From Candidatus Micrarchaeota archaeon (GTDB lineage: Archaea; Micrarchaeota; Micrarchaeia; Anstonellales; Bilamarchaeaceae): a stretch of 50,582 nucleotides of DNA. Where the stretch lies: NCBI GenBank assembly GCA_964435235.1, contig CAYSXZ010000057.1, forward strand, positions 1-50,582, written 5' to 3'. The notes beneath the pieces were generated by a model, which had not been told where the DNA came from, searched no databases, and saw only the letters and a program-made list of their open reading frames with translations. Positions within the stretch are counted from its first letter, which is position 1; each line of letters opens with the position of its first letter. Positions 16,421-28,110 of this stretch are shown here, one piece after another. Made by a program: the position numbers and the translations under genes.

Positions 16421-16510
16421 CTCTTTTCATTTTTCCTTGCCACATTTTTCACCTCCATTTTACTTCGTATATTATAATCAACATATTCTTATAAATCTAA
16501 CAAGAAAAAG

Positions 16511-16520
16511 TTTATAAATA
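16511..16520 (+). promoter_or_regulatory. Putative archaeal TATA box for tRNA-Arg
   Basis: aaaaag-tttataaata lies about 22-31 nt upstream of tRNA position 1. An identical 10-mer precedes the 23S leader. Confidence 0.55.
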
Positions 16521-16541: not shown

Positions 16542-16628
16542 GCCCTCATAGTCTAGCCTGGATTTGCATATCAGAAAGGACACGGGCTTCCGGAGCCTGT
16601 GAGCTGGGTTCGAATCCCAGTGAGGGCG
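16542..16628 (+). tRNA. tRNA-Arg(CCG) with a 13-nt non-canonical intron in the D-loop
   Basis: Hand-folded. Acceptor gccctca/tgagggc plus discriminator g. D stem gtct/ggac. Anticodon stem cgggc/gcctg with loop ttCCGga. T arm ctggg-ttcgaat-cccag. It is 87 nt rather than about 74 because of the extra D-loop sequence. Confidence 0.85.
16564..16576 (+). other. Predicted 13-nt BHB intron in the tRNA-Arg D-loop
   Basis: Central helix ctgg (16558-61) / tcag (16571-74), with 3-nt bulges att and aaa. Cutting after the second bulge nt gives the D-arm GUCU-AGCCUGGAUA-GGAC. Confidence 0.6.
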
Positions 16629-26078: not shown

Positions 26079-26123
26079 ACAACCTTTGTCCAGGTTTTTA
26101 GGAAGGGACAAAAGTTGGTCAGT
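26079..26123 (+). other. BHB mini-intron I1 (45 nt, loop AGGUUUUUAGGAAG), 23S domain II
   Basis: Central helix tgat (26073-76) / gtca (26118-21). Bulges aga and gtt. 12-position stem caacctttgtcc/ggacaaaagttg (one C-A mismatch). Removal leaves GGGGUGAUAG|UCCUGUCGAAC. Confidence 0.75.
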
Positions 26124-26970: not shown

Positions 26971-27017
26971 ATCCAAAGAACAGGTGTTCTTTGTCTGTCC
27001 TGTTTTTTGAACAGTAC
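26971..27017 (+). other. BHB mini-intron (47 nt, different loop UGUUCUUUGUCUGU)
   Basis: Central helix gctg (26965-68) / cagt (27012-15). Bulges aaa and aca. 13-position stem. Removal gives ACAGGUGCUCUAGCUGAA|AAGGCUAAGGUG, the same length as the reference ACAGGUGGUCAGGUAGAGAAUACCAAGGCG. Confidence 0.65.
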
Positions 27018-27323: not shown

Positions 27324-27360
27324 CATTCGGCTTCCTAGCTACTAGCCGAATGAAGAGAGA
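27324..27360 (+). other. 37-nt hairpin insertion splitting the universal CUUAA|GGUAGCG block (E. coli 1928/1929)
   Basis: ccctcttaa-[cattcggct tcctagctact agccgaatg aagagaga]-ggtagcg. Helix tctt/gaga, with a 2x2 internal loop in place of a clean 5' bulge (relaxed BHB). Confidence 0.6.
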
Positions 27361-27729: not shown

Positions 27730-27772
27730 AAACTTTTCACAAGGTTTTTAGGAAATGGGAAAAGTTTTTGAA
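27730..27772 (+). other. BHB mini-intron I2 (43 nt, loop AAGGUUUUUAGGAAAU)
   Basis: Central helix caga (27724-27) / tttg (27767-70). Bulges aaa and aat. Removal gives UCCGGUCAGAAA|UCGGAUG, matching the archaeal GGGUCAGAAAUCC-type hairpin (about E. coli 2305-2311 by my count). Confidence 0.7.
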
Positions 27773-28067: not shown

Positions 28068-28110
28068 ACGTTTTTTGCCAGATTTTTAGGAAGGGCAAAA
28101 ATCGGCATAA
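28068..28110 (+). other. BHB mini-intron I3 (43 nt, loop AGAUUUUUAGGAAG), helix-91 apex
   Basis: Central helix gtgc (28062-65) / gcat (28105-08). Bulges aga and aag. Removal gives CCUGGUGGUGCAG|GAGCCACCAAGG, 25 nt as in E. coli CCUGGGGCUGAAGUAGGUCCCAAGG. Confidence 0.75.

Follow-up and report, generated by a model that had tools for sequence, protein, structure and literature searches.

A 13-nt D-loop intron in a Micrarchaeota tRNA-Arg(CCG) gene, probably removed by an epsilon2-type splicing endonuclease

The window analysed here, a stretch of 50,582 nt from a small Micrarchaeia archaeon, carries at positions 16542-16628 of its forward strand a genuine arginine tRNA gene, tRNA-Arg(CCG), of a Micrarchaeota-type archaeon. 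The gene is interrupted in the D-loop by the 13-nt insert ttgcatatcagaa (16564-16576, + strand). The insert breaks an otherwise complete tRNA, and its removal restores the canonical cloverleaf. We consider it highly probable (about 0.9) that the insert is an intron at position 20a/21 which is removed by an epsilon2 endonuclease and RtcB to give mature tRNA-Arg(CCG). According to the proposed pathway, the tRNA would be transcribed with the 13-nt intron between D-loop nucleotides 20a and 21, and in the precursor a 4-bp helix would form between the exon nucleotides C17-U17a-G18-G19 and the UCAG at the intron's 3′ end. This helix would position each splice site two nucleotides beyond the 3′ end of one of its strands (AU↓U and AA↓A), the epsilon2 endonuclease would cleave both sites, and RtcB would ligate the exons. 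Splicing would thus yield a tRNA of 74 nt whose D-loop is the normal AGCCUGGAUA.

The gene starts with the acceptor stem GCCCTCA/TGAGGGC followed by U8 and A9. The D stem, GTCT (16551-16554) with GGAC (16578-16581), encloses a D-loop of 23 nt (16555-16577). The anticodon arm reads CGGGC-TTCCGGA-GCCTG with the anticodon CCG at 16590-16592, and is followed by a variable region of 4 nt and the T arm CTGGG-TTCGAAT-CCCAG. The discriminator G is nucleotide 16628, and CCA is not encoded in the gene. The 5′ exon (16542-16563, + strand) supplies nucleotides 1-20a, namely the 5′ strand of the acceptor stem, U8 A9, GUCU and the D-loop portion AGCCUGGAU. The 3′ exon (16577-16628, + strand) runs from A21 through GGAC, the anticodon arm, the variable region, the T arm and the 3′ strand of the acceptor stem to the discriminator G. 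The original prediction had named this gene tRNA-Arg(CCG) and described a 23-nt D-loop in which a CTGG/TCAG helix is flanked by the 3-nt stretches att and aaa. The identity was confirmed by a covariance model of intronless tRNA-Arg genes and by ARAGORN on the spliced sequence, and the loop, the helix and both flanks were all found on inspection of the sequence.

Intron boundaries were determined by comparison with related genes. A BLAST search of 40 related genomes supplied tRNA-Arg genes whose anticodon is CCG or GCG. A MAFFT alignment of eight tRNA-Arg genes contains a single 13-column gap, between GGAT and AGGAC, in the six intronless relatives. Eight tRNA-Arg genes of relatives, all of them intronless, served to build a covariance model of 74 positions on which the cloverleaf was imposed. 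Searched against 16542-16628, it matched at all of its positions 1-74 with 83.4 bits and an E value of about 1e-17, and it placed one insertion, 14 nt against 1 expected, directly after GGAU (net 13 nt). Deletion of 16564-16576 leaves GTCT-AGCCTGGATA-GGAC, a D-arm that is shared, with small variants, by six relatives without a D-loop intron. When excisions within the D-loop were scanned, only the predicted one combined four of four helix pairs in the bulge register with the D-loop of the relatives; a junction moved by one nucleotide either way produces GGAAA or GGATT, which is not the family D-loop. Since the intronless orthologues and a model free of any motif fix the boundaries, the junction is known independently of the splice motif. 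The intron is also marked by differences that fall only in its loop when the gene is compared with a near-identical metagenome copy. Thus the excision of 16564-16576 put forward in the original prediction agrees to the nucleotide with the intronless orthologues and the covariance model, and the D-arm expected from it, GUCU-AGCCUGGAUA-GGAC, is the one present in intronless relatives. The spliced sequence, with the 13 nt removed, is called an ordinary tRNA-Arg(ccg) by ARAGORN.

The splice motif lies around a central helix of four base pairs, three of them Watson-Crick and one G.U. Its 5′ strand, CUGG (16558-16561, + strand), is exonic and corresponds to C17 U17a G18 G19. Its 3′ strand, UCAG (16571-16574, + strand), is intronic. 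Next to the 5′ strand is the "bulge" AUU (16562-16564, + strand), with a predicted 5′ splice site at 16563/16564, and next to the 3′ strand is the "bulge" AAA (16575-16577, + strand), with a predicted 3′ splice site at 16576/16577. In each "bulge", which lies 3′ to its helix strand, the predicted cut follows the second of the three unpaired nucleotides. The gene had been proposed to obey the same bulge-helix-bulge (BHB) rule as other elements of this DNA. The cut geometry does agree with that rule, but the motif is not a strict bulge-helix-bulge; its class is relaxed bulge-helix-loop. An inner helix, as in the strict hBHBh′ form, is absent, and the 5′ site is within a 9-nt hairpin loop, AUUUGCAUA. 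The 3′ AAA is opposite the unpaired A14 G15 C16 and hence is not a true bulge. Strict hBHBh′ motifs are the substrate of alpha4 and alpha′2 endonucleases, and the window intron is outside that class.

Formation of the central helix gains just 3.3 kcal/mol in the computed energy of the precursor cloverleaf, and the unconstrained minimum-energy fold has a slightly different inner pairing, which is not conserved in a genome of the same genus (G005). Such a relaxed motif and such an alternative fold would fit removal of the insert at other junctions, or by a mechanism other than a BHB-type endonuclease. We regard this as extremely improbable. Only cuts at GGAT↓...↓AGGAC yield the D-loop AGCCUGGAUA of the relatives, the same rule gives the correct product of a tRNA-Pro(CGG) gene described below, and 13 nt, judged from length alone, falls far below what a self-splicing fold would need.

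Homologous inserts at the same site further support the endonuclease-spliced intron. In the six aligned copies the 4-bp helix CUGG/YCAG is paired in all 24 of 24 cells; two copies have UCAG as the 3′ strand and four have CCAG. Interior length differs between copies (5-17 nt), as does that of the whole insert (12-24 nt). All five tRNA-Arg copies have AUU as the 5′ flank and tRNA-Pro has UUU, and the 3′ flank AAA is invariant in all six. Over the eight pairs of the D stem and central helix, pairing falls from 97.9% to 19-52% when the partner strand is slid by 1 to 3 columns. No two-sided covariation was seen in the central helix, a test that is uninformative because the 5′ strand CUGG is the conserved exon D-loop C17-U17a-G18-G19, which is invariant.

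The genome G005 (GenBank JAWCKZ01, "Candidatus Bilamarchaeaceae archaeon"; Micrarchaeia, Anstonellales) is of the same genus as the host. Its tRNA-Arg gene is interrupted at this site by 12 nt, within the sequence CTGG-ATT-GGATG-CCAG-AAA-GGAC; compared with the window gene, the G.U pair of the helix is G-C, both 3-nt flanks are kept, and the loop is different. Two metagenomic tRNA-Arg(GCG) genes (L069 and L070) have introns of 21 and 14 nt at this site, and the former contains an inner hairpin, GTGC-GCAA-GCAC. The host genome (G000) itself contains a second case. Its tRNA-Pro(CGG) gene (G000:C24:8618-8715; L063:1485-1582) contains, at this same site of the D-loop, an intron of 24 nt arranged as CTGG-TTT-[6-bp hairpin]-CCAG-AAA with an inner helix of 6 bp. 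Applied to this intron, the cut rule gives GGCT-AACCTGGTTA-GACT, and an intronless orthologue with precisely this D-arm is present in the same-genus genome G002. The D stem of this tRNA-Pro(CGG) is very weak, as has been published for tRNA-Pro(CGG) of ARMAN-2.

The positions of introns in tRNA-Arg(CCG) differ across four species of the genus (L002:1405-1575, minus strand; L007:1501-1625; L017:1501-1629). The host gene has the D-loop intron only, G005 has the D-loop intron and a T-loop intron of roughly 84 nt, G002 has only a T-loop intron of roughly 50 nt, and G003 has only a 55-nt intron at 37/38. BLAST found no tRNA-Arg(CCG) gene in G001, G004 and G006, where the gene may be more fragmented or unassembled.

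The G18 and G19 residues of a tRNA make the elbow contacts with the T-loop. A small extra hairpin that stayed in the mature tRNA, with an enlarged D-loop, would also be expected to show a conserved helix and a variable loop, but it would sequester these two residues. Within one genus the insert is present or absent, with the D-loop unchanged whenever it is absent, and its length ranges as given above. Each helix strand has precisely 3 nt after it, the number that the endonuclease needs; inserts occur at many other tRNA positions of the genome, and the genome's enzyme has a close homologue, ARMAN-2 EndA (PDB 4FZ2), that cuts such motifs in vitro. Retention of the 13 nt is therefore very unlikely, and removal as an intron is the reading followed below.

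Standard tRNA finders do not call the intact gene. ARAGORN returned "tRNA-???", and the Rfam tRNA model gave a partial match of 18.4 bits in a sensitive scan, against a gathering score of 29. The host genome also has another arginine tRNA gene, tRNA-Arg(UCG) (G000:C63:2371-2487). By wobble this tRNA could read CGG, and the tRNA-Arg(CCG) gene need not be essential. Both facts would suit a decaying pseudogene broken by a small insertion, with CGG read by tRNA-Arg(UCG). Against such decay, every stem is intact, the covariance model scores the gene at 83.4 bits, and the stem changes relative to G005 are compensatory or preserve pairing. The same follows from two metagenome contigs (L067/L068) whose exons are identical to those of the window gene at 74 of 74 positions. 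Only two differences occur in the 87 nt, both within the 6-nt intron loop (TGCATA versus CGCAGA). The flanks of this relative have diverged: 182 of 205 aligned columns are identical in the 200-nt upstream region, and the downstream region is much more diverged. No second copy of tRNA-Arg(CCG) was found by BLAST in the host assembly (0.95 Mb, 66 contigs, about 92% complete). With the conserved promoter-like box described next, these observations make a pseudogene most improbable.

The gene sits in an intergenic gap between small ORFs, and a T-run lies 3′ of it. Upstream, at 16508-16520 on the + strand, is a promoter-like box of archaeal type, AAGTTTATAAATA, the sole exact match in the window; a search of the window with at most one mismatch gave 3 matches against 0.4 expected. 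The TATA-like portion, TTTATAAATA (16511-16520), ends 22 nt upstream of tRNA nucleotide 1. The box is almost identical in the metagenome relative L067/L068, and we infer that it would serve as the promoter.

ARAGORN proved too permissive as a judge of excisions, calling tRNA-Arg(ccg) in 378 of 2394 arbitrary ones, and was dropped as evidence in that role; a genome-wide census of excisions based on it was mostly noise and was discarded. A loose pattern, CTGGNTT...YCAGAAAGRM, was searched in 176 genomes of the order and gave 42 hits versus 11 in a reversed control. Among 30 fetched hits and the window site, with eleven other hits outside this count, only four were in tRNA genes: the window gene, the host tRNA-Pro, the G005 gene and an unclear tRNA-Met case in G083. 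The last case (L043; G083:C28:619-659, minus strand) concerns a tRNA-Met-like gene with an insert of the pattern CTGG-ATT...TCAG-AAA. This insert lies 3′ of the D-arm, where the anticodon stem begins, and no sensible spliced product could be derived by eye. A stricter pattern gave two sites outside tRNA genes, L066 and L071, the second of them in a Geobacteraceae genome, which were taken as chance.

The host genome encodes both enzymes of the proposed pathway. A protein of 394 aa (G000:C3; L031:1210-2391, minus strand) aligned over its full length with ARMAN-2 EndA (PDB 4FZ2 chain A) with an E value of 7.1e-129, residues 7-394 of the query against 5-387. The motifs FRIYFPG, WVHS, SVKKTF and GTYK are conserved. 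The counterparts of Y236, H251, K282 and R275, as well as Y160 and K161 of the specificity loop, are all kept; in the published work Y236, H251 and K282 are assigned as catalytic residues, and roles are also given for R275 and for Y160/K161 of the ARMAN-specific loop (PMC12397907). Pfam recognised the catalytic domain PF01974 in two stretches and the N-terminal domain PF02778 once. By these sequence features the protein is a three-unit (alphaN-alpha-betaC) epsilon2 splicing endonuclease. A full-length epsilon2 enzyme was present in 40 of the 41 relatives searched. In the crystal structure of ARMAN-2 EndA with RNA, the scissile phosphate is between bulge nucleotides two and three (PMC12397907), and in vitro the same enzyme cuts an intron of 13 nt that has a relaxed (hBH/BHL) motif (PMC3239211). 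The RtcB ligase is also encoded in the host genome (465 bits). Cleavage and ligation of the tRNA-Arg(CCG) precursor would be carried out by these two proteins.

The RtcB sequence is contained in a 987-aa open frame (G000:C22:186-3008), in which the Pfam match is in two halves, 1-50 and 47-426, about 1.45 kb apart; the split is probably due to an intein. A second protein with an endonuclease domain, of 170 aa (G000:C52:13673-13915; L032:1459-1968, minus strand), matches PF01974 with 38.5 bits and has a weak match to M. jannaschii EndA (PDB 1A79).

What is typical of protein-spliced non-canonical introns in archaea is found for the window gene: the cloverleaf is restored, the helix and cut geometry are present, and the genome has genes for a broad-specificity endonuclease and a ligase. 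Most tRNA genes of the host are interrupted, with about 6 of 33 Rfam tRNA matches contiguous and intron-free. Interrupted examples are located in the host genome at C11:1585-1715, C59:14246-14321, C36:8763-8836, C39:7450-7626 and C28:10130-10247. In many host tRNA genes the D-loop contains an insert that fits AGCTCAG↓AGC...↓TGGTAGAGC, and additional introns frequently accompany it. Tandem repeats occur on the flanks of several tRNA genes (G000:C43:1130-1480, C1:10050-10180, C20:23065-23190, C24:8520-8617, C52:60-620, C39:7320-7450 and the 3′ flanks in C23/C28). Each unit of these repeats is a copy of the 5′ or 3′ acceptor end of the tRNA plus a hairpin, and the leader and trailer copies seem able to pair mutually.

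The tRNA intron had also been offered as independent support for a rule, cutting after the second bulge nucleotide, that was used for elements in the 23S rRNA gene of the window. As support for the rule of this organism's enzyme the claim holds, but excision of the 23S elements is not thereby shown. The rule itself coincides with the cleavage geometry published for ARMAN-2 EndA (PMC12397907). Five candidate 23S mini-introns are located at 26079-26123, 26971-27017, 27324-27360, 27730-27772 and 28068-28110 of the window. Each has four of four central-helix pairs in the register of the tRNA intron, an agreement that is circular because the 23S coordinates were picked using the cut rule. The loop AGGTTTTTAGGAAG occurs exactly in two of the candidates and with one or two base differences in two more. 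The match to the Rfam LSU model exceeds the length of that model by about 330 nt.

For annotation, the failure of ARAGORN and Rfam means that the arginine CGG decoder would be logged as missing from this genome. As the junction is fixed by intronless orthologues, it offers a clean calibration of the endonuclease splice rule, which helps to judge the 23S candidates. The intron is one more case of fast turnover within one genus, and it opens no new question. The mini-introns at 20a/21 in tRNA-Arg(CCG), tRNA-Arg(GCG) and tRNA-Pro(CGG) all terminate in YCAG-AA. It is conceivable, although we think it unlikely, that they form one mobile family, as opposed to a set of independent insertions, and spread from one tRNA gene to another with the near-universal CUGG of the D-loop as a ready-made half of the splice helix. 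If that were true, the pairing of G18-G19 would keep the elbow of the precursor open until splicing, which could act as a checkpoint of folding or quality control.

The closest known system is that of ARMAN-2 (Candidatus Micrarchaeum acidiphilum; Fujishima et al. 2011, PMC3239211; Hirata et al. 2012, PMC3488258; Miyata et al. 2025, PMC12397907), which belongs to the same class of archaea as the host. Disrupted tRNA genes of Micrarchaeota and the epsilon2 enzyme have been in print since 2011 (PMC3239211). The host has a full-length homologue of the three-unit enzyme with conserved catalytic residues and loop Tyr-Lys, and both organisms have many tRNA genes with interruptions at non-canonical positions. 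The window intron shares its length of 13 nt and its motif class, relaxed hBH/BHL, with the intron of pre-tRNA-Cys(GCA), the substrate of the published in-vitro assay. However, that intron is in the T-loop (59/60) whereas the window intron is in the D-loop (20a/21), and the host is from another order, its kin being labelled Anstonellales, Bilamarchaeaceae. The 3′ bulge of the window intron also differs in that it faces three unpaired nucleotides, with no direct stacking on an outer helix.

Non-canonical introns are likewise known from Thermoproteales and other Crenarchaeota, where they are processed by an (alpha-beta)2 endonuclease (Marck and Grosjean 2003; Sugahara et al. 2008; PMC4090602, PMC4033280), and position 20/21 is among the known non-canonical intron sites of archaeal tRNA (PMC4090602). 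The original prediction had stated that non-canonical positions and very short introns are known in some archaeal lineages, which is correct: both D-loop introns at 20/21 and 13-nt introns have been published for archaea, Micrarchaeota among them (PMC4090602, PMC3239211). As in the present case, the crenarchaeal introns have relaxed HBh′/hBH motifs, can occur more than once in a gene, are gained and lost rapidly among closely related organisms, and recur in similar form in different isoacceptors. The Crenarchaeota are another phylum, and their enzyme is an alpha-beta heterotetramer whereas that of the host would be, by homology, an epsilon2 homodimer. Hidden D-arm introns of Asgard archaea, as described in a 2026 preprint (bioRxiv 10.64898/2026.10.13.758758), are also overlooked by standard finders and have BHB-type boundaries. 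They were likewise recognised by comparison with compact relatives, in a lineage different from that of the host. The window gene is a new, well-supported example of a phenomenon whose existence, position and enzyme are already published.
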